Shown: positions 1-36,256, numbered from the stretch's first letter. The stretch is DNA of 64,000 nucleotides from Gammaproteobacteria bacterium (GCA_002723195.1 PBNR01000044.1:54415-118414), one strand, 5' to 3'. Notes: a model not told the origin generated them from the letters alone. Numbers and translations: made by a program.

Positions 1-38
1 ATCTGGGCGTTTCATTTCCGGTAGATATATAAAACTGG

Positions 39-2241: not shown

Positions 2242-3337
2242 TAATAGTAAATCTAACAGACGCAAAGTAAATCCGCTCAGCCTGGCCTTCCTTGATGTCA
2301 TGTTTTGTGGCTTTGGTGCTGTGATTTTGATTTTCCTGATACTCGATCATGCAAGCACGATGTCACCAGAAGAATCTAACCCAGAATTACTAGCAGAAAT
2401 CAATCTGCTAAATGAAGAAGTCAAACAAGGTGAGTTGGGCCTTGTTCGCATTCGTAATATTTTATCCGATGTGGATTTTGAAGTCGTTACAGCGGAAGGA
2501 TTAGCCCGTCAGATCATGGAACAAATCGATACCTTTCTGCAAGAACTTGCTGCCCTTGAAAACAGCAGCATGGCAACAGAGGAAGACTTAGCTAAGCTGC
2601 GTTCGGACATTGAAGCGCTGGAACAGGAGGTATTGCGCTTACAGGCCACCGCTTTTGAACAAGAAGGCAATAGTGTGCGTCAATTTCTCGGTGATGGCAA
2701 TCGGCAATACTTGTCAGGTTTATTCTTAGGTGGGCAACGCATTTTAGTTTTGGTGGACAGTTCTGCGAGCATGCTGGATAGCACCATCGTAAATATTATC
2801 CGCACCCGTAACATGAGCGATGAACTTAAGCGGAATGCACCTAAGTGGAAGCGTGTGGTTAGCACGGTCGATTGGATAAGCACGCAGCTGCCTGTTACCA
2901 GTCAATATCAAATTTGGAGTTTTAACACGGAAACTAATTCGGTTATTGAGGGCACTAAAGGGTTATGGTTAGAGGTTGCCGATAGGGACCAGCTCAATCA
3001 GGCGATCGAAAATGTAAATACCATTGTGCCTGCCGATGGCACTAATATGGAACAGGTTTTCAGGGCCGCCGCGAACATGTCACCACGACCCGACAATATT
3101 TTCTTAATCACGGACGGATTACCCACTTTGGACGACAGGGGTTCCTCAGATCCCTTGGTTACTCCAAAGGAGCGAGTAGCGTTATTCGAAGAGGCAGTAG
3201 AGGAACTGCCGCCGTCAATACCTGTCAATATAGTATTGATGCCGCTGGAAGGAGATCCCGCAGCTGCCGCAGTATTTTGGCAGTTAGCGCAGTACACTAG
3301 AGGATCATTTTTAACGCCTTCAAAAGATTGGCCCTAA
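2231..3337 (+). CDS. Membrane-anchored protein: ExbD/TolR-like Asp-containing TM segment, coiled coil, then a periplasmic von Willebrand factor A domain
   Basis: The basic N-terminus (NRRK) is followed by LAFLDVMFCGFGAVILIFLIL (cf. ExbD/TolR P.iDV...LLiFF). Residues ~50-145 are heptad-rich (EINLLNEEVKQGELGL...LRSDIEALEQEVLRLQ). The MIDAS motif is LVLVDSSASM (D at 2756-2758), followed by ADGTNM and IFLITDG. The start (GTG 2231 or ATG 2234) overlaps the stop of the preceding gene. Confidence 0.7.
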   Translation: MMASNSKSNRRKVNPLSLAFLDVMFCGFGAVILIFLILDHASTMSPEESNPELLAEINLLNEEVKQGELGLVRIRNILSDVDFEVVTAEGLARQIMEQIDTFLQELAALENSSMATEEDLAKLRSDIEALEQEVLRLQATAFEQEGNSVRQFLGDGNRQYLSGLFLGGQRILVLVDSSASMLDSTIVNIIRTRNMSDELKRNAPKWKRVVSTVDWISTQLPVTSQYQIWSFNTETNSVIEGTKGLWLEVADRDQLNQAIENVNTIVPADGTNMEQVFRAAANMSPRPDNIFLITDGLPTLDDRGSSDPLVTPKERVALFEEAVEELPPSIPVNIVLMPLEGDPAAAAVFWQLAQYTRGSFLTPSKDWP

Positions 3338-22754: not shown

Positions 22755-25712
22755 TTACTCTTCGTAATTTTCTATCGGTGGACAGGTACATAATAAATTT
22801 CTATCGCCATAAACATTGTCGATACGATTAACCGGTGGCCAGTATTTCCCTTCCACGTTACCACCCAAAGGAAAGGCTGCCTGGGTTTTGTTATAAGGGC
22901 GCTCCCATTCATCAACCATGTCAAGCATCGTGTGAGGTGCTTGTTTCAGAGGATTATTTTCGGCATCAATTTCACCGGATTCGACTTGTTTAATTTCCTG
23001 GCGAATCTTTATCATGGCATCGATGAAACGATCCAATTCCTCTTTTGATTCACTCTCAGTTGGCTCGATCATCAAGGTGCCAGCAACTGGGAAGGACATA
23101 GTCGGCGCATGAAAACCAAAATCCATTAAACGTTTTGCAATGTCTTCTTCACTAATACCTGTGGCCTGTTTTAATGGTCGCATATCGATGATGCACTCGT
23201 GGGCTACCATGCCAGTGGTGCCGGTATACAATACAGGAAAGTGCGGGGCCAGTTTCAGGGCGATGTAGTTGGCGTTTAGAATCGCTACCTGAGTAGCCTT
23301 TAACAAACCAGAATCGCCCATCATTGCGATGTACATCCAGGAAATTGGCAGAATGCCGCAACTACCCCAAGGAGCGGCCGATATGGCGCTGTTTTCTGCT
23401 TTTGGTCCCTCAATACTTATAACCGAATGGTTTGCCAGATAGGGCGCCAGATGATTTTTGACCCCTATTGGACCCATGCCCGGACCCCCACCGCCATGCG
23501 GGATGCAGAACGTCTTGTGGAGATTCACATGAGACACATCCGCGCCGATCTCAGCTGGTTTTGCGATTCCTACTTGGGCATTTAAGTTTGCCCCATCCAT
23601 GTAAACCTGGCCGCCATTATCATGAATTATCTGACAACTTTCTTTTACTGATTCTTCATAAACCCCATGAGTCGAAGGATACGTAATCATCAGTGCAGCT
23701 AGTTCATTTTTGTGTAACTCTGCTTTCGTTTTTAAATCTGCACAATCAATGTTTCCATCTTCATCGCAGGCAACAAGAACAACTTTCATACTTAGCATTT
23801 GTGCGCTGGCTGGATTGGTTCCATGGGCTGAGCTTGGGATCAAACAAACATCGCGGTATCCACTGCCCTCGCTAGACAGGTACTTTTTGATTGCGAGCAA
23901 GCCCGCATATTCCCCTTGGGCTCCGGAATTCGGTTGCATGCTAATCGCGTCGAACCCTGTAATCTCTGCCAACATGCCTTCTAACTCTTTGATTATTTGT
24001 TGATACCCCGCCATCTGCTCTAGCGGAGTAAAGGGATGTGGCTTGGCAAACTCAGGCCAGCTAATTGGAATCATTTCTGCTGCTGCATTGAGTTTCATAG
24101 TGCAGGAACCCAATGGAATCATTGCGTGAGTAAGTGAGATATCTTTATTTTCAAGGCGTTTTATGTACCTCATCATTTCAGTTTCGCTGTGGTAGCGATT
24201 GAATATTGGATGCTGTAGATAGGAACTTCGCCTCAGCAAATTGTCTGATATAGCTGAAGAAACTTCAGCTTGGGTTATTGCAGCGTCGATAACAGAGACA
24301 GAAAGCTTTTGGCAGCCTTCTCCGAGTAGTACCTTCCAGAGTCTTTCTACATCTTTGCTTGTTGTGCACTCGTCAAGACTAATGCCGACGGTACCGTGCT
24401 CTACTACTCTGTCCATGCGCAAATTAATTCCTGCTAATGTGCAGCGTTCCTTCAGCGCCTGGACTTTGTCCTTATGAATTTTTATCGTTAGCGTGTCAAA
24501 GTAATTTTCATTTACTATGGACAAACCCGATTGCTCAATGCCTTTTGCGAAAATAGTAGTTAAACGATGAATCCGTTGAGCAATAATTTTAAGCCCATCC
24601 GGGCCATGGTACATAGCATAAAGCGCTGCAATATTCGCAAGTAATACCTGGGCGGTGCAGATATTGCTGTTGGCTTTCTCTCTGCGAATGTGTTGCTCTC
24701 GGGTTTGTAATGCCATACGGAATGCTTGTCTTCCCCGCTTATCGATAGAAACTCCTATGATGCGACCGGGAACTGCACGCTTATATTCATCTTTTGTTGC
24801 AAGGTAAGCGGCGTGTGGCCCTCCATAACCCATGGGTACACCGAACCGCTGTGTACTGCCAATTACAACATCCGCATTCATTTCACCTGGCGGTTTAAGA
24901 AGAGCAAGACTCATTAAATCAGCAGCTACGATGGCTATGGCTTTGTTAGTATGAAGGTCTGCAATAACATCAGTAAAATCTATAGCTTCACCAAGCATCG
25001 AAGGGTATTGAAAGATGGCGCCAAATAACTCTTCATGGTTTATGGCATCAATTCCACCAATTATTAATTCCCATCCAAAGCACTCGGCGCGCGTCTTAAT
25101 GACGTCAATAGTCTGCGGGAAACAGTGTTCATGGACAAAGAATTTATTGGCCTTGCGGTTTTTGCTTACCCGCTTGGCTAGAGCCATTGCTTCGGCGGCC
25201 GCGGTGGCCTCATCTAGAAGTGATGCATTTGCAAGGTCCATCGCGGTTAGATCCAAGGTTAATTGCTGGAAGTTAAGTAAACATTCCAGGCGCCCTTGAG
25301 AAATTTCCGGTTGGTAAGGTGTATAGGCTGTGTACCATCCGGGATTTTCGAGCACGTTACGCAGAATCACATTTGGGGTATAAGTGTCATAATAGCCTAG
25401 CCCTATGAAGGAACGCGTATTTTTATTTTTAACTGCAATAGATTTTAGTTTTGCCAGAGCTTTGTTTTCTGTTGTTGGTTTTCCGAGCGATAGCGGTTTA
25501 TTGGCCAGGATTGAATCAGGAACAGATTTTTTAATCAGTGCTTCTAGTGAGTCTAATGACAGCACACTAAGCATTTTCGCTATATGGTCATCCCCTGGAC
25601 CTATATGACGGTTTATAAACTCATTCTGTTGTTCAAGTATTTCTAAGGTGGGTGCTGAATCATTCTGGGCGGAGTCAGGCGGTATGGGTGAGGTTTTCGC
25701 TGGTGTCTGCAT
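22755..25712 (-). CDS. gcvP: Glycine dehydrogenase (decarboxylating), glycine cleavage P protein
   Basis: It is a 985-aa single-chain P protein. The PLP-lysine region is [16 protein letters not shown]. It is collinear with enterobacterial GcvP. Confidence 0.97.
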
Positions 25713-25814
25713 AAATCCTTTCTACTTGATAAGAGCTGTTTAAACAAGAACAAATACTTGAATGTGTTCGCAGTACTATAGCATTTGATCTGTTCTAGCA
25801 AGGTTCTACTAGCA

Positions 25815-26204
25815 TTATTCGTCTTCGCAATGGGTCGAATAGCTATCCTTGTCCATAAGTTTTAGTAGCTCCCCCTCGTTAGCGATTGTTACTTTGAAAA
25901 ACCACCCATCTTGATAAGGAGACGAATTCACCGTTTCGGGAGCATCTAGCAGTTCATTGTTAATTGCAGCGATCACTCCAGAAACTGGGCTGTAAATATC
26001 AGACGCTGCTTTGACTGATTCTACTACTGCCACTTCATCTTTAGCATTTATGGTGGAACCGATTTCGGGCAACTCTACGAAGACAATATCGCCAAGAGCA
26101 TATTGGGCATGATCACTAATCCCAACGGTGGCAGTACCATCATCGTTTTTTCGAATCCACTCATGGGTTGGAGCATATCTTAAGTCATCAGGAATATTAC
26201 TCAC
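25815..26204 (-). CDS. gcvH: Glycine cleavage system H protein
   Basis: The lipoyl-lysine motif is [17 protein letters not shown]. The protein is 129 aa. Confidence 0.95.
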
Positions 26205-26260
26205 GCAATGGCTCCCTCACTAATTGATGCGCGAGCAGCGCTCTTGATGCTCGCTTATTC

Positions 26261-27349
26261 TTATTCAAAGACTTTCTTACCAAATCGCACAAAATTGGGC
26301 TTAACAATGCGCACCGATGTTAGCGTGCCACGCAGATCAACTTTGCAGGATTCGCTGTTGATAGGGATTCTAGCTAATGCAATTGACTGCTTCAATGTCG
26401 GTGAAAACGAGCCGCTGGTAATGAAGCCATTACCCTTATCCGTAACTACTTTTTGGCCTTCCCTAAGCACTCCTCGCCCTTCCAGGACCAATCCAACTAA
26501 TTGCGGTAATTTACCCTCATCGCGCAATAGCTTGTGGGCAATAAGTGCTGGTTTCCCAATGAACTCACGATCCGTTGGTTGGTAGGCTATAGTTTTTTCC
26601 AAGTTAGCAGCGAGGGGTGAAGTGCTTTCATCCATGTCTTGACCGTATAAATTCATACCTGCTTCCAGGCGAAGTGTGTCCCGTGCCGCCAGCCCGATCG
26701 GTTTTATGTCCGCTTCTAATAAACTATCCCAAAACTCAGATGCTTCTGAAGCAGGAAAGATAAATTCCAATCCTTTCTCGCCGGTATAACCGGTGCGAGC
26801 TACAAACCAGTTTTCTAATTCAATACCCTTAAAGTTGCTTAGCTTACGAATCCGCTGAGTATATTCGTCCGATAAAATTTCACAGACCTTGTCGATTGAT
26901 TGTGGGCCATGGACTGCCAGAATAGCGAGACGAGGTCTTTCTTCTACCGAAACGCCGAACCCAGAAGTGTGGTGGATCATCCAACGCATGACCTTTGTTC
27001 GGGTGGCACAGTTTGTAACCAAGCGATAACCGAACGTCATGTGGTATACAATCAGATCGTCTAAGACGTTGCCTTCATGATTCAGCATAGTGCTGTATAG
27101 GGCGTGGCCGGTTTCTTTGAGCTTCGCTACGTCGTTGGCCAACAGATAGCGCAAATATTTTTCTGCCTCTTCGCCGCTTACATCGATTACAGTCATATGG
27201 GAAACGTCAAATACACCCGCAGCGCTCCGAACCTGATTATGCTCTTTAATTTGGGACCCATAGTTAATGGGCATGTCCCATCCGGCAAAATTTACGACTT
27301 TTGCGCCAGCTTTAATGTGTTTTTGGTATAGAGCGGTTTGTTGTCCCAA
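26261..27349 (-). CDS. gcvT: Aminomethyltransferase, glycine cleavage T protein
   Basis: The TTG start gives MGQQTALYQKH (cf. E. coli GcvT MAQQTPLYEQH). The GVFDVSHM motif is present. Confidence 0.95.
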   Translation of the reverse strand: MGQQTALYQKHIKAGAKVVNFAGWDMPINYGSQIKEHNQVRSAAGVFDVSHMTVIDVSGEEAEKYLRYLLANDVAKLKETGHALYSTMLNHEGNVLDDLIVYHMTFGYRLVTNCATRTKVMRWMIHHTSGFGVSVEERPRLAILAVHGPQSIDKVCEILSDEYTQRIRKLSNFKGIELENWFVARTGYTGEKGLEFIFPASEASEFWDSLLEADIKPIGLAARDTLRLEAGMNLYGQDMDESTSPLAANLEKTIAYQPTDREFIGKPALIAHKLLRDEGKLPQLVGLVLEGRGVLREGQKVVTDKGNGFITSGSFSPTLKQSIALARIPINSESCKVDLRGTLTSVRIVKPNFVRFGKKVFE

Positions 27350-27667: not shown

Positions 27668-29908
27668 CTAGGGTTGCCAGGCGTAACTAAACTTGGCGAA
27701 AAAAGTGCGGTTGGTGTATTCGAGGGAGCTGTAGCGGTCGTCTTCGAAACCTGTATCAGAATAGCCAATAAAGAAGCGAGTCGCCGCATTGACTCTATAG
27801 CTATAGAGTAGCTGAGTGCCAAGCTCTCGAGTACGACCATCCACGGGGAAAATGTAGTTGTCTTTATTCCGTTCTCGGTCTTCATATTGAACTGTTAGTC
27901 TTAAAAAACTGCGGGAATCGAACTGGTAGGTTGCTCTGATATCAGTGAGGTTCGCGGTAAATAGATTAGCACTATTTGATTCGAAATCTTGGTACTGATG
28001 CCCTATATCTAGTAGCAAGTGTCGACCAAAGCGATAACGAATACGAGGCCCCCAGCGTGTTGAATACCCTAACCGAGTGTTAGCGAAATCGACAACATCT
28101 TCATATCGAATCAGTGAGCTAATAGTCAAGTTAGGTGTTGGTGAAAAGCCAATATTGATCATATTAAATTGTTCATCGAAGTATTTGCCATTCCAATAAG
28201 TTTCGCTACTTCCGAATAATCCGTTTAAGAAAGACTGCAAGGGCCCATTCATGTTAAGAAAGAATTCTGTTTCTTCTTCAATTTGCAAACCAGATTGATC
28301 TTCAGTGCGGTCATAATCTGCAGCAAAGCGAATTCTACTGAAGAACCCCTCGCCATCCCATCGCCAGGTATGTCCGATAGTCGCGACTATGTGTTTGAAG
28401 TCGACGCGATTAATAAACCCTACATCAGCTCTAAAGTCCTCACCCCAATCGTAGTAACCGAGACGCCAATCCCAATTTCGGTCATTGTGGCGATACTCGA
28501 ACACATGGCTGCTATCATTAATACTTGAGTTCTGCGCAAATTGGTTCTGAATCAGTAGTGGGTAATCAGAGCTAGAATACATACTCTGAATCGATATTGT
28601 GTCTGAATCTGTAGGCCTTAAGGAGGCGTCTAGACTTATTACAGTGTTGTTGTAATCGTCGCCTCTTCTATCTGTTATTAAGGCGCCGATTGTGGAGTTT
28701 TCAAAGATGTCCATACGGTAGCGACCTATGGCTACCTTGCTTTTCATATCTCCTATGGAAGCTATGCGAGAGCTTAAGCTTTTGGGTATGATGAAATTGG
28801 TAGTTTCATCATTTGCTGCGATTAATCCATAAGTATGATCGCCAGTTTTGCCGGTAACTTTTAAACCATATTCAGGGGAAGCGATGTTTCTTGTGTGAAC
28901 TAAGTTCTCATATGTATCGAAGTAGTCCGCGCCATCGAGGAAAAAAGTTCGGCGCTCTGGAAAAAATAAACTGAAAGTATTATTTACGTCCAATTGAGTG
29001 CTGTCCGCCTCTACTTGGGAGAAATCCGGATTTATAGTCGCGTTTAAATAAATATCCTGGGTAATCCCCCAACGAAGATCGAGGCTCCCTTCAGGGTCAA
29101 AATCTTCGCGTTTCCAGTCTCTATTGACTGATGGGTCGCGGTTTTCGATTGACGAAGCGGTGAGTGTTGGAATAATTTCAAGGTTGCGACTTTGTTCAAG
29201 GTCATTGAGACCTTCCAATTTGCTTATTTGACACAGATAGCATGAGATATCCCTGCTGATTTCTTGGAGGTGTATTTCGGTACTTCGATCGCGCGGGTAA
29301 TGTCTGTATAGGTCTATCCCCCAAGTTTGTGAGGAATCGCTTTCTGGAAAGCGCAGTTGCTTTAGCGGAATAGCGAGTTCAATGCTATAGCCTGTTTCCG
29401 TAATTTGACCAACGCTGTCCCAAATTGCATTCCAAGACTCATCCTCTCTTTGATTTATACCGTCATAAATTGTGTCCATTTGTACACCTAGTGGATTGAC
29501 ATAAAATCCAAAAGCTCGCCGCTCATCATTGAACGTGTCGAGAATAATTCCCATATAATCCCCATCCCAACCGTTGTCTCGGTCTTGATAGAAGCCGCGT
29601 ATTTTTTCAGGATCAGGATCTTTAGCAAGAAAAGCAACGTATATTGTCTCACCATCCTCCATAATTAGAGCATCCGCAGACACGTCAGCATTAACGTTAT
29701 CTCGGGGCTCCACCTCTATATTCACGGGGATGCGCGCGGCTAACTCCCATTCGGAGGTTCCGATGGTGCCGTCTATCGCAGGGGCTTTGGACACACGGGG
29801 AATTGTAAAGTTATTTGCAGATTGCCCAGAGAGCAATCCGGATAGCAGTAAAACAACTGATCCTATACATAAGGAATCAAGGGAAACGATGCTGCGCCTT
29901 GCAACCAA
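27668..29908 (-). CDS. Secreted/outer-membrane protein with an N-terminal CBM9/DOMON-like domain and a large beta-rich C-terminal domain (DUF5916-like)
   Basis: It has a signal peptide (SVVLLLSGLLSGQSA). The N-terminal APAIDGTIGTSEWELAA...YVAFLAKDPDP resembles carbohydrate-binding family 9-like domains. The long alternating-pattern C-terminal region ends FFAKFSYAWQP. Confidence 0.55.
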   Translation of the reverse strand: MVARRSIVSLDSLCIGSVVLLLSGLLSGQSANNFTIPRVSKAPAIDGTIGTSEWELAARIPVNIEVEPRDNVNADVSADALIMEDGETIYVAFLAKDPDPEKIRGFYQDRDNGWDGDYMGIILDTFNDERRAFGFYVNPLGVQMDTIYDGINQREDESWNAIWDSVGQITETGYSIELAIPLKQLRFPESDSSQTWGIDLYRHYPRDRSTEIHLQEISRDISCYLCQISKLEGLNDLEQSRNLEIIPTLTASSIENRDPSVNRDWKREDFDPEGSLDLRWGITQDIYLNATINPDFSQVEADSTQLDVNNTFSLFFPERRTFFLDGADYFDTYENLVHTRNIASPEYGLKVTGKTGDHTYGLIAANDETTNFIIPKSLSSRIASIGDMKSKVAIGRYRMDIFENSTIGALITDRRGDDYNNTVISLDASLRPTDSDTISIQSMYSSSDYPLLIQNQFAQNSSINDSSHVFEYRHNDRNWDWRLGYYDWGEDFRADVGFINRVDFKHIVATIGHTWRWDGEGFFSRIRFAADYDRTEDQSGLQIEEETEFFLNMNGPLQSFLNGLFGSSETYWNGKYFDEQFNMINIGFSPTPNLTISSLIRYEDVVDFANTRLGYSTRWGPRIRYRFGRHLLLDIGHQYQDFESNSANLFTANLTDIRATYQFDSRSFLRLTVQYEDRERNKDNYIFPVDGRTRELGTQLLYSYRVNAATRFFIGYSDTGFEDDRYSSLEYTNRTFFAKFSYAWQP

Positions 29909-30067: not shown

Positions 30068-30652
30068 CTATAAATTTGAAGCAGCCTCAATAATGTTATC
30101 GAAATCCGGTCTGGCCCGAAAACCTTCCTCAGCAAATTTGGCACGGATTACGCCATCGGGACTAATTAGGAATATTCCCGGATGAGGCACACCGTAGGCA
30201 CGATCACCTGGCTCATAATCTTCATTCAAGATTCCAAGGGAGTTCACATGAGTTATGCTCTCATCACGAAGTAGACTAAATTCGACCCCCTGCTCTTCTT
30301 CCACTAATTTTAATACTTCAACAGAGTCATAGGTCATTGCAGCTATATTTACCCCCATAGCCGCAAATTGATTGCTAATTTCTGTAAGCTGCACGAGCTG
30401 ACTCTTGCAAAATGGTCACCATTCGAACGAGCGACTTAACATAAATAGCAAGCCTTTTTCTCCAACAAGATCTCCAAAAGAACGTAATTTGCCATTCTGA
30501 TCTTGTGCAGAAATTTCTACAACGGAAGAACCTACAGGAAAATTCGAGGCCCATACATATTCCTGAGCCTGTGAGGTTTGATAAAAACCAATGGAAAAAA
30601 AAATGAGGAAAGTCTTACTAAGTAGCATCGCTCCTTGGTTGAAAAAACGCAT
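30068..30652 (-). CDS. Secreted AhpC/TSA (redoxin) family thiol-disulfide oxidoreductase with one in-frame TGA at the first Cys of the CxxC motif: candidate selenoprotein, otherwise a pseudogene
   Basis: Track ORFs 30416-30652 and 30068-30394 are in the same frame. They are joined by TGA (30416-30418) followed by CCA TTT TGC AAG AGT CAG CTC. The continuous reading is ...LSRSFEW-[TGA]-PFCKSQLVQLTEISNQF.... The 'start' of the downstream ORF is only a GTG (Val) in that frame. The N-terminus has a signal peptide ending SQA-QE. Confidence 0.6.
30384..30402 (-). promoter_or_regulatory. Candidate SECIS-like hairpin downstream of the in-frame UGA
   Basis: The mRNA reads UGA + 13 nt, then GUCAGCU-CGUGC-AGCUUAC. 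This is a 7-bp stem with one C.U mismatch and a 5-nt loop, so it is short and imperfect. The position fits where bacterial SECIS elements lie. Confidence 0.3.
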
Positions 30653-30800
30653 ATCTTCTCCTAGTTGCCTAGCAATTTTAATCTATCTGAAAGAAAATGC
30701 AGTAAGTCACTTTAATAATACCTAATTAAGTGTGATGTATTACTTTAGAAATAAATTACAGCATCAAAACGAACTTCCTTGAAGAAAACTAAACTTAGTC

Positions 30801-31496
30801 TTAATTAAGTTCCGATAAGAAGCGCTCGGTTCTTGGCAGATAGCTATTCTCACTATCTAAGGAAAATACCACCGAAGAGGAGCGCCCTATAATTTCTTCG
30901 CGAGGGACAAAACTGTAGATTCTGCTATCAGCACTGTTATCTCGGTTATCGCCCAGCACAAAATATTGATTCTCTGGGACTACAGTTGGACCGTAACTGC
31001 GATTATTGCGGTTCAGATAACCGCGGGATAATCTCGCTCGGTATTTTTTTTCCGGGAGATGCTCCTGGATAATAATTGATGAGCCTTCAGTTGACAGAAC
31101 TTCATAGTCTGCGGCTACGTCATTGATCACCAGGTTATTGTTCTGCATGTAAATAGTATCGCCCGGTATTCCAACAATGCGTTTCACCAGTCGTTTGTCA
31201 GCAACTTTGGAGTCAATCATAACAATGTCACCTCTCCTAGGATCAGAAACTTCCGTGAGTGAGATTTCTGTAAACGGTATTTTCACGTCGTAAGCTAATT
31301 TATTAACCCATACCTTATCGCCGTCTAGCAGAGTGGGCAACATAGATGCGCCAGATATAGAACTCAAGTCAGCGATTGCGCTTTTAAAGAAAACGATACA
31401 GAGCAAAAGAGCAAAAAATTGCCGATTTTCCTCCCAGAAAATCGACAAATAGCCTCGAATACGATTAGGCAGACTGTGTTTGTTTGATTCGTGCAC
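30801..31496 (-). CDS. lepB: Signal peptidase I (S26), short form
   Basis: The catalytic Ser is in SGASMLPTL and the catalytic Lys in KRIVGIPGD. The conserved GDNRDNSADSR box is present. Confidence 0.9.
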   Translation of the reverse strand: MHESNKHSLPNRIRGYLSIFWEENRQFFALLLCIVFFKSAIADLSSISGASMLPTLLDGDKVWVNKLAYDVKIPFTEISLTEVSDPRRGDIVMIDSKVADKRLVKRIVGIPGDTIYMQNNNLVINDVAADYEVLSTEGSSIIIQEHLPEKKYRARLSRGYLNRNNRSYGPTVVPENQYFVLGDNRDNSADSRIYSFVPREEIIGRSSSVVFSLDSENSYLPRTERFLSELN

Positions 31497-31759: not shown

Positions 31760-34700
31760 ATGGCTTTATCGAATTTACATCCTGCTAGCGCAAACTGGTT
31801 TGAATCCAAGTTTGGTCAGGCTACTGCTGTCCAAAAGAAGGCCTGGGAGGCTATTCAAGCCGGGAAAAATACCCTGATCTCAGCACCAACCGGCAGCGGA
31901 AAGACGCTGGCGGCTTTCTATGCAGCTATCGACGATTTAGTGCAGAAAGGCACCAAGGGTCAGTTACTAGAGGGAGTTCAAATTCTTTATGTTTCACCTT
32001 TAAAGGCATTAAGTAATGATATCCATAAGAATTTGGAAACTCCGCTTGACGGTATTGCAGAACAACTGAATCTGCTAGGGGAATCACCGGTAAATATTTC
32101 TATAGCGGTTCGCACAGGGGATACACCTGCTAAAGAACGGCAAAAGATGGTTAGAAACCCTCCTCATATTTTGGTTACCACGCCGGAATCACTCTATTTA
32201 CTACTTACCAGTACAGGCGGTCGTTCAATCTTGTCCGCTGTTTCAACCCTAATAGTAGATGAAATTCACGCCATGCTTGGGGACAAAAGAGGCTCACATT
32301 TGGCGCTATCCATGGAACGGTTGCAAAACCTAGTGAACAAAAACACCGGGCAATACGTACAGCGCATTGGTCTTTCGGCCACTCAGAAGCCTATACAGGT
32401 GGTGATGAAATACCTAGTTGGTTGTGGAGGTATTGCTCAGCGGACTGAAGGTGAAAAGGAAACTGAATGTGAAATTATAGATAGTGGTTTTCAGCGGGAT
32501 ATAGACGTTACTTTGGAGGTACCGGAGTCACCTTTATCAGCACTCATGAGCAATGAGGTGTGGGAAGAACTATATAGAAGGCTGGTTGAGTTGATCCATC
32601 AGCATGAAACCACCCTAGTTTTTGTTAATACTCGGCGGCTTTCAGAAAGATTAGCATTGGCACTCTCAGAGCGCCTGGGTGAACGATTTGTTTGTTCTCA
32701 TCATGGCAGTATGAGTAAAGACCTACGTTACGATGCGGAACAGAAACTTAAAGCGGGAGAATTAAAAGTATTAGTAGCAACTGCTTCCATGGAACTTGGA
32801 ATAGATATTGGTTCGATCGATTTGGTTGTACAGTTTTCTTCGCCAAAAAGTATAGCCACTTTCCTCCAAAGGATTGGGCGCAGCGGTCACACCATACACG
32901 GGACACCAAAGGGCATACTTTTTCCTTTAACAAGAGATGATCTAGTCGAATCAACAGCATTATTGCACAGCATTAAGAAAGGAGAGTTGGATAGGGTCGT
33001 GGTGCCTCAGAAACCAATGGATATACTGGCACAACAAATTGTTGCCGAAGTCTCTGCTAAACCTTCAGCTTCCAGTAGTTACGATGACAGTTGGGATTTA
33101 GGCGAATTATTTGCATTATTCAAAAAAGCCTATTCATATGGTGATTTAACCTCGGAAGAATTCAATAAAGTAGTTCAAATGTTATCAGACGGTTACTCCA
33201 CTAGAAGAGGTCGCCGCGGAACCCACCTGCATCTTGATGCCATTAACAACAAGGTTAGAGCACGTCGTGGTGCTAACCTAATATCCATCACTAATGGTGG
33301 CGCGATACCGGATATGTTTGATTATCAAGTCGTGCTGGACCCCGAAGACGTTGTTGTTGGCAGTCTCAACGAAGATTTTGCCTTGGAGGCATTGCCAGGG
33401 GATGTCTTTACTTTGGGTACCCACGCTTGGCAAATGTTGCGGATAGATGGACTAAAAGTGAGAGTAAGAGACGCAGAGGGCGCCCAACCCACAATTCCTT
33501 TTTGGTTTGGCGAAGGGCCGAGTCGAACTCAAGAACTTTCGGTCTCCGTTGCAGAGATAAAACAAACTATCGCTGACTTTCTAACTGATAATTGTGCGAA
33601 TGCTGCAATACAATTTCTAGTTGATGAAGTGTCTTTGCCACTTTCTGCTGCAATTCAAGTAACGGAATACTTGCAATCGGGCATAAATGCTTTAGGTGTA
33701 ATGCCGACGCGCGAATTGATCGTAATAGAGAGGTTTTTCGACGAGGTTGGTGACATGCATGTCGTCATTCATTCGCCTTATGGTAGCCGTATAAATCGAG
33801 GCTGGGGTTTGGCCTTACGTAAACGCTTTTGTAAATCATTCAATTTTGAGTTACAAGCCGCCGCTAATGAAGACAGTATTGTTATTTCTCTTGGGTCAAT
33901 TCACAGCTTTCCATTAGATGACGTTTTTAAGTATTTGCGAAGTGAAAACGTAAGAGAAGTATTAATACAAGCCATGTTGGATGCGCCAATGTTTGAAGTC
34001 CGTTGGCGTTGGAATGCGACTCGATCATTAGCAATTCAAAGGAATCGAAATGGTAAACGAGTACCTCCACAATTTCAGAGAATGGATGCTGAAGATTTGA
34101 CCGCTCATATTTTCCCTGATCAGATCGCTTGTCAGGAAAACATTGTGGGTACGCGAGATATTCCTGACCATCCATTGGTGAAGCAGACTGTAAACGATTG
34201 TCTGACGGAAGCTATGGATATTAAAGCGTTGGAAAAGTTAATAGGCAATATAGAACAGAAATCCTTAACCTTGGTTTCAAAGGACCTAAGAGAGCCTTCG
34301 CCTTTCGCTCAAGAAATTATTAATGCAAGGCCCTATGCTTTTTTAGATGATGCGCCTTTCGAGGAGCGCAGAACCAATGCCATTCGCAATCGAAGGTGGT
34401 TAGACCCATCAGAAGAAAAGGATTATAGCCTTTTAGATTCCGAGGCGATTTTGCAAGTCAGACAAGAAGCCTGGCCTTATGTAAGCAATGCAGAAGAGCT
34501 TCATGACGCCTTGTTATCTCTAAGTTATATGACGGATGCAGAATTTACGCTACATCAGTGCGGGCGTTGGAAAGAACAGTTAATTAGAGAAGGTCGCCTC
34601 TTGCAGCTCAAGAGCCACATAAATCAATTATGGATTGCGGCTGAGTATTTTCCGAAGTTTAAAGTTATTTTCTCAAGCATGAAAGACCAGATTGCTTTGC

Positions 34701-36256
34701 CAGAGAGTTTGCTCGCGCAAGATTGGTCGGAAGAAAAGGCGTTGATTGCGATTATAAGAGGAAGGCTAGAAGGCTCGGGTCCAATCCTGGCATCATCGAT
34801 TGCTGATCAGTTGAAAGTAGACATTAAGAAAATAGATGCCACCTTGATAGCATTGGAAACAGAAGGGTTTGCTTTTCAGGGGCACTTCAGCAATAGGGAA
34901 GGAAAAATTTCTAAAACCGAAACAGAGTCAACCAAACAGAAAGAATGGTGTGAGCGTCGGTTATTGCAGCGTATACATCGTTATACGATCGACGCACATC
35001 GGAAAGCGACTAAACCTGTTTCTATAGAAACTTATAATGAATTTTTATTTGAACAACATCAACTCGTTCCGATTAATAAAAACACTAGTGGGCAGGAACC
35101 TTCACTCGATGGCCCGACCAAACTTCAAAACACATTGAATTTGTTGGATGGCATCGCTTGTCCCGCTGCTACGTGGGAGGCGGATATTTATCCAGCAAGA
35201 ATCGAGAATTACGATCCGAGTTGGCTCGATACTATGTGTATTAGCGGGAAGGTAGCCTGGGGTCGCTATAGCTTGCCAAATAGCTTCCGTCGGCCAGGTA
35301 AGACTAGAGCAATGGGACCTGTAAAGAGCACACCTATTACCTTGGCCGGGCGCAAAAATTTAGACATTTGGCAGGCATTAGCAAGATCACAATTGTCAAA
35401 AGAGTCGGTAAAGTTCAGTGGAATTGCTTCTAAAATTGAAGCGGATTTAGAGGCTCATGGTGCGAGTTTCTTTGGGCAGATTCAATCACGAACCGGATTG
35501 TTAAAATCACAGTTAGAGGAAGGATTAGGTGAGCTTGTTGGTTTCGGTCGGGTTTGCAGTGATAGTTATACAGGGCTTCGTGCATTGTTAACACCAGCTA
35601 ATAAAAAGCCGAGCACAAGAAGGCGACGTAATCGAAGGACTATGTTTGGCGTCGAGGACGCAGGGCGTTGGAGTCTTTTAGATACATTTCAATTGCAATT
35701 ATCGCAGGAAGGCGCAAACAAAAAACCTTCCCACACTTGGCAGATATTGGACGAGGAACAAATTGAAAGATTAATCAGTATATATCTGCAGCGTTGGGGA
35801 GTGCTGATGCGATCCTTATTGGAAAGAGAGTCGTTTGCCCCACCTTGGCGAGTATTATTAATGCATTTACGCAAATTGGAATCGCGCGGTGTGTTGCGAG
35901 GTGGGAGATTTGTAGCTGGGGTTGGAGGAGAGCAGTTTGCTTTCCCGGAGACAGTTGATGCGTTGCGCAAATTACACAAGAAAAAAAAGAAAAATCAGCT
36001 ACATAAACCATTTTATAGTTTAAGCGCGAGCGACCCCCTAAATCTATTAAGCCTTTCCTTACCAGGCAAAAAGATTGCACGATTTTTGAGAAATAGAGTG
36101 CTTTATCAAGGAGGCTCCCCAATTGCAATTTTGGAAAATGGTGAAGTACATTTCCTACGAAACGTTGAATCGCAAAAACAATGGGATTTAAGTCAAATAT
36201 TGCGCAAACGAAATTTTCCTGAGCGACTTCGCAGTTACCTTGGTGTACATAATTGA
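31760..36256 (+). CDS. lhr: Large ATP-dependent DEAD/DEAH-box helicase Lhr
   Basis: The helicase motifs are APTGSGKT, VDEIHAM and LSATQ. At 1498 aa, it has the long Lhr-type C-terminal extension. Confidence 0.95.
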   Translation: MALSNLHPASANWFESKFGQATAVQKKAWEAIQAGKNTLISAPTGSGKTLAAFYAAIDDLVQKGTKGQLLEGVQILYVSPLKALSNDIHKNLETPLDGIAEQLNLLGESPVNISIAVRTGDTPAKERQKMVRNPPHILVTTPESLYLLLTSTGGRSILSAVSTLIVDEIHAMLGDKRGSHLALSMERLQNLVNKNTGQYVQRIGLSATQKPIQVVMKYLVGCGGIAQRTEGEKETECEIIDSGFQRDIDVTLEVPESPLSALMSNEVWEELYRRLVELIHQHETTLVFVNTRRLSERLALALSERLGERFVCSHHGSMSKDLRYDAEQKLKAGELKVLVATASMELGIDIGSIDLVVQFSSPKSIATFLQRIGRSGHTIHGTPKGILFPLTRDDLVESTALLHSIKKGELDRVVVPQKPMDILAQQIVAEVSAKPSASSSYDDSWDLGELFALFKKAYSYGDLTSEEFNKVVQMLSDGYSTRRGRRGTHLHLDAINNKVRARRGANLISITNGGAIPDMFDYQVVLDPEDVVVGSLNEDFALEALPGDVFTLGTHAWQMLRIDGLKVRVRDAEGAQPTIPFWFGEGPSRTQELSVSVAEIKQTIADFLTDNCANAAIQFLVDEVSLPLSAAIQVTEYLQSGINALGVMPTRELIVIERFFDEVGDMHVVIHSPYGSRINRGWGLALRKRFCKSFNFELQAAANEDSIVISLGSIHSFPLDDVFKYLRSENVREVLIQAMLDAPMFEVRWRWNATRSLAIQRNRNGKRVPPQFQRMDAEDLTAHIFPDQIACQENIVGTRDIPDHPLVKQTVNDCLTEAMDIKALEKLIGNIEQKSLTLVSKDLREPSPFAQEIINARPYAFLDDAPFEERRTNAIRNRRWLDPSEEKDYSLLDSEAILQVRQEAWPYVSNAEELHDALLSLSYMTDAEFTLHQCGRWKEQLIREGRLLQLKSHINQLWIAAEYFPKFKVIFSSMKDQIALPESLLAQDWSEEKALIAIIRGRLEGSGPILASSIADQLKVDIKKIDATLIALETEGFAFQGHFSNREGKISKTETESTKQKEWCERRLLQRIHRYTIDAHRKATKPVSIETYNEFLFEQHQLVPINKNTSGQEPSLDGPTKLQNTLNLLDGIACPAATWEADIYPARIENYDPSWLDTMCISGKVAWGRYSLPNSFRRPGKTRAMGPVKSTPITLAGRKNLDIWQALARSQLSKESVKFSGIASKIEADLEAHGASFFGQIQSRTGLLKSQLEEGLGELVGFGRVCSDSYTGLRALLTPANKKPSTRRRRNRRTMFGVEDAGRWSLLDTFQLQLSQEGANKKPSHTWQILDEEQIERLISIYLQRWGVLMRSLLERESFAPPWRVLLMHLRKLESRGVLRGGRFVAGVGGEQFAFPETVDALRKLHKKKKKNQLHKPFYSLSASDPLNLLSLSLPGKKIARFLRNRVLYQGGSPIAILENGEVHFLRNVESQKQWDLSQILRKRNFPERLRSYLGVHN

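Follow-up and report, generated by a model that had tools for sequence, protein, structure and literature searches.

An in-frame TGA in a peroxiredoxin-like gene of marine Gammaproteobacteria is very probably a selenocysteine codon followed by a short conserved hairpin

Introduction

Selenoproteins that resemble peroxiredoxins (Prx) and carry selenocysteine (Sec) in a thioredoxin-like UxxC motif are a catalogued, predicted part of the marine bacterial selenoproteome. They were reported in the Sargasso Sea study as a 'Prx-like protein' in which a thioredoxin-like UXXC replaces the TXXU of Sec-containing Prx (PMC1088965), and were listed in the Global Ocean Sampling (GOS) study as 'Prx-like 1' (pfam00578; UxxC), counting 225 selenoproteins and 2,740 homologues with Cys (PMC2398784). 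Reviews from 2022 and 2026 retain them as the 'Prx-like thiol:disulfide oxidoreductase' (PF00578; UxxC, UxxU), predicted with high confidence (PMC9312934, PMC13188914). Here, we analyze a locus that belongs with these proteins, found in a stretch of 64,000 nucleotides (nt) from a Gammaproteobacteria bacterium (GCA_002723195.1, PBNR01000044.1:54415-118414), referred to below as the window. Region 30652..30068, on the minus strand, is very probably a single gene for an exported peroxiredoxin-like redox protein, in which an internal TGA encodes Sec.

The first-pass annotation of this DNA had stated that Prx-like or thiol:disulfide oxidoreductase-like selenoproteins are known from marine bacteria, and the two metagenomic surveys bear this out (PMC1088965, PMC2398784). 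The family is already known, and the present finding is the correct recognition of a selenoprotein catalogued between 2004 and 2008 rather than of a new kind of protein; it is ordinary because the family has been catalogued and because an orthologue stands in the GOS selenoprotein list.

A single reading frame interrupted by one TGA

Mechanical gene calling divides the locus into two open reading frames (ORFs), 30416..30652 (78 amino acids, aa) and 30068..30394 (108 aa, GTG start), which lie in one frame and are offset by the 24 nt that run from the T of the TGA to the G of the GTG. Translation of the minus-strand frame 30652..30068 meets a sole internal stop, TGA 30418..30416, around which it reads GLLFMLSRSFEW-(TGA)-PFCKSQLVQLTEI, with the immediate context SRSFEW-U-PFC; taken further upstream, the reading before the TGA is GEKGLLFMLSRSFEW, followed by PFCKSQLVQLTEI after it. 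Both the shared frame with its 24-nt offset and the TGA as only interruption had been noted in the first-pass annotation, and they agree with the ORF coordinates and with the 194-codon frame. The identical TGA-bearing sequence recurs in six metagenome assemblies of this species that are independent of one another, each annotated with a 78-aa gene and a 108-aa gene, and a sequencing error at the TGA is therefore excluded.

Conservation of the TGA across species

Homologous DNA was gathered by scanning one genome per species (GTDB representatives). The 80 loci obtained belong, with few exceptions, to metagenome-assembled genomes (MAGs) of Pseudohongiella, Pseudohongiellaceae or Pseudomonadales. 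In the alignment column of interest, 39 of the 80 species have TGA and 41 have TGC or TGT. Two divergent JGI metagenome relatives (41-43% identity) also have TGA, bringing the number of TGA lineages to 42 (39 species-representative genomes, the window and the two JGI contigs), whose proteins diverge down to 41% identity. In the 41 Cys-form species, this column is the first Cys of W-C-P-F/Y-C; alignment with the Cys homologues, proposed as a check in the first-pass annotation, thus confirms its claim that the stop falls on the first Cys of a CxxC motif. All 42 TGA lineages keep the frame open on either side of the TGA: for at least 65 codons upstream, where it begins with a start codon and an N-terminus resembling a signal peptide, and for 113-121 codons downstream. 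Upstream of the TGA, residues W34, G41, D51, R74, S75 and W78 are invariant in TGA and Cys forms alike.

These data bear directly on the possibility that the gene is a redoxin inactivated by a nonsense mutation in its catalytic Cys codon. Such a mutation would take a single-base change from TGC or TGT to TGA, the window shows no Sec machinery, and the databases annotate the locus as two small ORFs. A pseudogene is nevertheless effectively refuted by the comparative data, and its probability is close to nil: the same TGA recurs in 42 species-level lineages with proteins at 41-80% identity, no further stop or frameshift occurs over the about 190 codons of the gene in any of them, both halves of the protein show the same amino acid conservation as in the Cys forms, and a nucleotide constraint specific to the TGA forms lies just downstream of the codon, as described in the next section.

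As a side observation on this collection, the titles of six loci, L045, L058, L068, L071 and L076 ('Klebsiella pneumoniae', 'Klebsiella sp.', 'Enterobacteriaceae' MAG) and L041 ('Alphaproteobacteria'), do not match the Pseudohongiella-like gene that they carry, and the corresponding public bins are probably mislabelled or contaminated.

A covarying hairpin conserved only in TGA forms

In the window, the hairpin GUCAGCU-CGUGC-AGCUUAC occupies 30402..30384 and starts 13 nt after the UGA. It contains a C.U mismatch (30400/30386), due to a CUU codon in this copy where CUG would pair, and an extra flanking G-C pair (30402/30384). Its 15-nt core, CAGCUCGUGCAGCUG, begins 16 nt after the UGA and encodes Q-L-V-Q-L. 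Each position of this core is 95-100% conserved at the nucleotide level in TGA forms, unlike the neighbouring synonymous sites, which vary freely. The same stretch is variable in both nucleotides and amino acids in Cys forms (QLQQL, QLVGL, QLERL and others). Across +18..+32, third codon positions have an entropy of 0.73-1.88 bits in these forms, compared with 0-0.32 bits in the TGA forms.

Comparison of 40 distinct TGA-form segments by RNAalifold and pair counts recovered a single hairpin of 6 base pairs (bp), columns 18-23 with 29-34, closed by the loop CGUGC. Its cells are paired in 98.8% of cases, against 10-48% in controls in which the 3' partners were slid. Compensatory changes occur at two pairs, from U-A to C-G (three sequences) or G-C (one sequence) and from C-G to U-A (two sequences), and the covariation score was matched by none of 500 shuffles. 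Loop positions G25 and U26 are invariant in 40/40 segments. The divergent loci L080 and L088 carry a compensated variant, CCAGUUG-GUY-CAACUGG, with a 7-bp stem and a 3-nt loop (GUU or GUC), while L087 has a G.U wobble in the hairpin and L048 a change in the loop.

The bSECISearch consensus for the bacterial selenocysteine insertion sequence (SECIS) comprises an apical loop of 3-9 nt, an upper stem of 4-16 bp, a G in one of the first two loop positions, with G or U as its usual 3' neighbour, a spacing of 16-37 nt from the UGA to the apical loop, and a minimum free energy (MFE) of at most -7.5 kcal/mol (PMC13188914). In the TGA forms, the stem and loop (6 bp with 5 nt, or 7 bp with 3 nt in the divergent variant) lie within these ranges, the loop reads C-G-U-G-C or G-U-Y, and 20 nt (columns 4-23) separate the UGA from the loop in every sequence, without any indel. 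The conservation of the hairpin is far beyond chance when sequences are compared, though single-sequence folding is uninformative; only the comparative analysis is decisive.

A second helix of 4 bp, which pairs UGYA (columns 10-13) to UGCA (columns 26-29) and lies at 30390-30409 in the window, competes with this hairpin; it was considered and rejected as the conserved element. It is pairable in 97.5% of cases, has no compensatory change and stays at the level of shuffles; it is broken in two divergent TGA forms and leaves the constraint at columns 30-34 and 18 unexplained. This helix joins the second Cys codon plus A (UGCA) to the UGCA of GUG-CAG. In this species, it is the MFE fold of the 48 nt that follow the UGA, and it may compete with the hairpin in vivo.

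The first-pass annotation had described a hairpin at 30402-30384 beginning 13 nt after the UGA, which the sequence contains, and had held that the gene decodes Sec rather than being decayed. For the latter claim, it had named further disabling mutations in relatives and the lack of a conserved downstream stem-loop in orthologues as findings that would tell against it. None of the 42 TGA lineages has such a mutation, and the stem-loop is conserved, with covariation, among TGA forms alone. The maintenance of the TGA, the intact halves, this stem-loop and the published predicted family all support Sec decoding.

Alternative fates of the UGA codon

The UGA could be read as another amino acid, either as Trp under genetic code 4 or as Cys or Trp by near-cognate read-through. 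About 20 ENA/JGI entries (P0001-P0017, P0090, P0117; loci L087, L088) do render the TGA as Trp, giving DWWPFC. These are gene-caller artefacts, apparently arising from gene calling with genetic code 4 on short contigs: for two of them, the underlying DNA carries TGA, and under code 11 its translation differs from the deposited protein. TGA is the terminator of 8/40 long ORFs in the window, and the organism therefore uses the standard code, in which TGA is no reassigned Trp codon. Moreover, a Trp at the position of the CxxC nucleophile would abolish redox activity, and simple read-through would leave unexplained why the hairpin, with its loop GU, is conserved only in TGA forms. Decoding as an amino acid other than Sec is thus highly improbable.

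A further alternative is that the locus yields two products, a secreted 78-aa N-terminal peptide and a 108-aa protein started at the GTG, or that termination at the UGA dominates and the full-length protein is a minor, selenium-dependent fraction. In this species, AAGAG stands before the GTG at 30394. In bacteria, Sec insertion competes with termination by release factor 2 (RF2), and some truncated product is hence expected, which also speaks for this alternative. Against it, the 21 nt that separate TGA from GTG code for a conserved, in-frame P-F/Y-C-x-x-Q-L that includes the second redox Cys, a split at this point would break the thioredoxin-type fold apart at the active site, AAGAG is not kept in other species, and the GTG itself sits inside the loop of the conserved hairpin. 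We therefore consider two products, or predominant termination, very unlikely, and decoding of the UGA as Sec in a single full-length protein remains the preferred reading.

Several results weigh against this reading. First, the window hairpin taken alone, with its C.U mismatch, is no better than shuffled sequences (-3.8 kcal/mol, z = 0.27; z = 0.04 in a 76-nt context), and the minimal hairpin of this species falls short of the bSECIS limit of -7.5 kcal/mol. The MFE of the minimal hairpin is -3.8 kcal/mol in the window, -6.6 to -6.7 kcal/mol in typical relatives and -8.4 to -8.6 kcal/mol in the divergent variant, values whose comparison with the limit depends on the length of segment over which the model computes the MFE. 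The 48-nt segment after the UGA reaches -8.3 kcal/mol in the window, but via a competing local hairpin, which is the MFE fold of that segment in this species. Second, the core is mostly invariant and the covariation is carried by few divergent sequences, and a search of Rfam (4227 families, permissive threshold) returned no match, only a chance hit to ClpQY_promoter (E = 5.1). Third, tblastn with E. coli SelA, SelB and SelD found no match in the 64-kb window or in 88 loci with 3-kb flanks, and ARAGORN found no tRNA, hence no tRNA-Sec, in the window. Finally, the reviews list Sec insertion in the family only as 'predicted with high confidence' (PMC9312934, PMC13188914).

Scans of the window for other TGA-interrupted genes or UxxC/CxxU motifs gave no credible candidate. 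On the comparative evidence, absence of the Sec machinery from the genome is very unlikely, although its presence is not thereby proven.

An exported peroxiredoxin-like protein with a UxxC dyad

Protein profile searches, run with Cys substituted for the stop, matched Pfam AhpC/TSA (PF00578) over residues 40-171 (E = 1.4e-18; 67.5 bits for a cut-off of 26) and Redoxin (PF08534; E = 8e-10). All NCBIfam matches were below threshold, the best being NF040769, 'SelL-related redox protein' (41.4 bits for a cut-off of 120). The structural comparison is based on P0019, a naturally occurring homologue with Cys that is 61% identical to the window protein, as modelled by AlphaFold2 (mean pLDDT, the predicted local distance difference test, of 86). 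In this model, a long helix at 78-96 begins at the Pro of CPFC, placing the CxxC at the helix start, and a low-confidence N-terminal helix spans 6-20. The nearest PDB folds are BCP/PrxQ and AhpE peroxiredoxins (TM scores of 0.85-0.88, normalised to the target).

The assignment of Sec to the peroxidatic position of a Prx was ruled out by alignment to the BCP of A. pernix (2cx3), where C82 aligns with the peroxidatic Cys, and Sec with the Ser of T/SxxC in Prx. WUPFCK aligns residue for residue with the WCPHCK of ResA. In the motif S75-x-x-x-U79-x-x-C82, Sec or Cys stands at the canonical Thr/Ser position of Prx and Ser at the Pro position, a pattern that departs from PxxxT/SxxC. The protein is Prx-like in fold with a thioredoxin-type UxxC dyad and is not a canonical Prx, because the Thr/Ser and Pro positions are replaced by Sec/Cys and Ser. 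The Sargasso Sea study characterizes its 'Prx-like' selenoproteins by just this combination (PMC1088965).

More than 80 relatives all share the N-terminal layout of the window protein, a hydrophobic stretch ending in A-x-A or S-x-A before Q-D/E-F/Y/W-x-W. Together with the predicted signal peptide (Table 1), this layout suggests that the redox protein is exported and probably periplasmic.

We propose that the UGA at 30418..30416 is decoded as Sec in a 194-residue, signal-peptide-bearing thiol oxidoreductase of Prx fold. The hairpin 13-14 nt downstream, embedded in the Q-L-V-Q-L codons and exposing the invariant GU in its CGUGC loop, would act as a bacterial SECIS, recruiting SelB-GTP-Sec-tRNA(Sec) for delivery of Sec to the ribosome in competition with RF2. 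In the mature protein, the Sec79 selenolate would be the nucleophile that attacks a peroxide or a substrate disulfide, and Cys82 would resolve the intermediate to form an intramolecular selenenylsulfide. The latter would then be reduced again by a periplasmic reductant relay. From Sec insertion and SelB binding to export, chemistry, substrate and reductant, these steps are what we infer from the gene and its relatives.

Possible interconversion of Sec and Cys forms

In a neighbour-joining tree, 38 TGA forms make up one clade, inside which a single Cys form, L050, is nested (JBJOHV010000097.1, about 3177; TGC). The synteny Lhr-LepB-x-DUF5916/CBM9-gcvT is common to 35/39 TGA forms and to L050, and the other Cys forms occur in different contexts. 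In L050, QLVQL has become QLSQL and the core is lost, as would be expected if the constraint of the SECIS had vanished once Sec reverted to Cys. Judging from these sequences, L050 looks like a reversion from Sec to Cys accompanied by loss of the SECIS core. A second, distant TGA group consists of L080, L087 and L088, and the use of Sec in the family is therefore old.

Many Cys forms also fold a hairpin at the SECIS position, with a loop that lacks GU. Examples are the loci L037 and L042 (about 3156-3222 plus 18..32); the hairpin of QLQQL forms, CCAGUUG-CAG-CAACUGG, has -8.3 kcal/mol, and that of L042 has -10.9 kcal/mol. Such hairpins form because the codons for Q-L-x-Q-L (CAG-YUN-NNN-CAR-YUG) are intrinsically self-complementary, and they could be either a fossil SECIS or a pre-adaptation. 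More tentatively, and with odds that we would put well below even, the family as a whole might be a natural Cys/Sec interconversion series, in which CAGCUCGUGCAGCUG and the compensated variant CAGUUGGUYCAACUG would be a lineage-specific minimal SelB-binding element serving an exported selenoprotein of aerobic marine heterotrophs.

Annotation of the family and genomic context

The consequences for annotation are apparent in whole-database protein searches, whose counts are given among the matches listed. About 30 homologues are full-length (187-195 aa, up to 74% identity) and are of two kinds, DW-C-P-F/Y-C and DW-W-P-F/Y-C. More than 80 clusters consist of C-terminal fragments of 108-111 aa with a common M/V-Q-L start and 66-100% identity to the query. 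NCBI MAG entries of the subgroup are named 'hypothetical protein' or truncated 'peroxiredoxin family protein'. Annotation pipelines thus split the gene or read its TGA as Trp in more than 100 database entries, and the selenoprotein is missed across a family of marine Gammaproteobacteria.

The biology added here is little, UxxC Prx-like selenoproteins of marine bacteria being already catalogued; the residual value lies in the documented, systematic mis-annotation of the subgroup and in a well-defined and very short SECIS for which one bacterial family offers a natural contrast of Sec and Cys forms. The clean division into 39 TGA and 41 Cys genomes, the apparent reversion of one form and the near-invariance of so short a SECIS make the family a convenient system that may be of use in studying the minimal requirements for SelB recognition and the cost and benefit of Sec versus Cys in an exported enzyme.

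The features of the locus are collected in Table 1. The gene order of the neighbour set, which comprises gcvT-gcvH-gcvP, the CBM9/DUF5916 protein, the S26 signal peptidase and the Lhr-type helicase, is kept in most Sec-form species. A functional link with the LepB-type signal peptidase or the CBM9/DUF5916 protein was considered and set aside: synteny is conserved, yet it is no evidence of such a link because the flanking housekeeping genes Lhr and gcvT are equally conserved.

Table 1. Features of the selenoprotein locus and its neighbours, in window coordinates.
Feature	Position	Strand	Description	Basis
Complete coding sequence of the probable selenoprotein	30068..30652	minus	194 codons M1...U79...L194, stop TAG 30070..30068; AhpC/TSA (Prx-like) fold	translation, Pfam, homologues
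In-frame TGA, predicted Sec codon U79	30416..30418	minus	same alignment column TGA in 42 lineages, TGC/TGT in 41	
Redox motif U79-P80-F81-C82 (thioredoxin-like UxxC)	30407..30418	minus	just before N-terminus of long helix; W78, P80 and C82 invariant	alignment
Predicted signal peptide (Sec export pathway), aa 1-29	30566..30652	minus	MRFFNQGAMLLSKTFLIFFSIGFYQTSQA then QEYVW; basic R2 and K13, hydrophobic core, S-Q-A cleavage-type site	
Putative bacterial SECIS-type hairpin	30384..30402	minus	helix 30401-30396 with 30390-30385, loop CGUGC 30395-30391, core 30400-30386	
GTG miscalled as start of the 108-aa ORF	30392..30394	minus	Val87 in the full-length protein; in the RNA, the GUG within the SECIS apical loop CGUGC (30391-30395)	
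Shine-Dalgarno-like AGGAGA	30657..30662	minus	4 nt upstream of the ATG at 30652	read from sequence
gcvT-gcvH-gcvP glycine-cleavage genes	22755-27349	minus	neighbour	
746-aa CBM9/DUF5916 protein	27668-29908	minus	neighbour	
S26 signal peptidase (LepB-like)	30801-31496	minus	neighbour	
1498-aa Lhr-type helicase	31760-36256	plus	neighbour	

Comparison with known systems

With Sec-containing peroxiredoxins (PF00578, TxxU), the window protein shares the AhpC/TSA fold. Those proteins carry Sec or Cys at the peroxidatic position, which corresponds to C82 here, whereas the Sec of the window protein is placed three residues earlier and the Pro of PxxxTxxC is replaced by Ser. ResA, TlpA and CcmG (DsbE) are likewise exported proteins with W-C-x-x-C, and the NCBIfam models for ResA and DsbE match weakly. 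However, these matches (E about 2e-5) lie far below the family cut-offs, and the fold of the window protein is nearer to BCP/AhpE peroxiredoxins. No cytochrome-c maturation gene was found adjacent to the window gene. SelL and the NF040769 proteins are also Prx-like redox proteins with a Sec-containing dyad; the window protein, given its score against that model, is no member of NF040769.

The SelB-binding hairpins of E. coli fdhF and fdnG have a small apical loop with an essential G-U. Like these elements, the putative SECIS described here is located within the coding sequence, a short way 3' of the UGA, and has a small apical loop with G-U. It is shorter (6 bp, with a loop of 5 or 3 nt) and has no evident bulged U, and its helix starts 14 nt after the UGA, compared with 11 nt in E. 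coli.

The closest system is Prx-like 1, or Prx-like thiol:disulfide oxidoreductase, with which the window gene has in common the Pfam domain, a UxxC motif with Sec first, Cys homologues, a stem-loop in the coding region after the UGA, and an origin in marine bacteria. The signal peptide and the near-invariant 15-nt SECIS core of the subgroup are not described in the studies of the family cited here (PMC1088965, PMC2398784, PMC9312934, PMC13188914). The window protein has the pfam00578 domain, UxxC at the Cys column and TGA homologues in other organisms, and it is related to a listed member: JCVI_READ_1091141068545 (195 aa), from the '#Prx-like 1' block of the GOS dataset, contains MMSRSFDWUPYCKAQLVQLTEIS and is 62% identical over 171 aa (E = 2e-90). 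There is no fundamental difference between the window gene and Prx-like 1, of which it represents an orthologous subgroup, characterized by S-R-S-F-D/E-W-U-P-F/Y-C-x-x-Q-L-V-Q-L and carried by Pseudohongiella-like Gammaproteobacteria.

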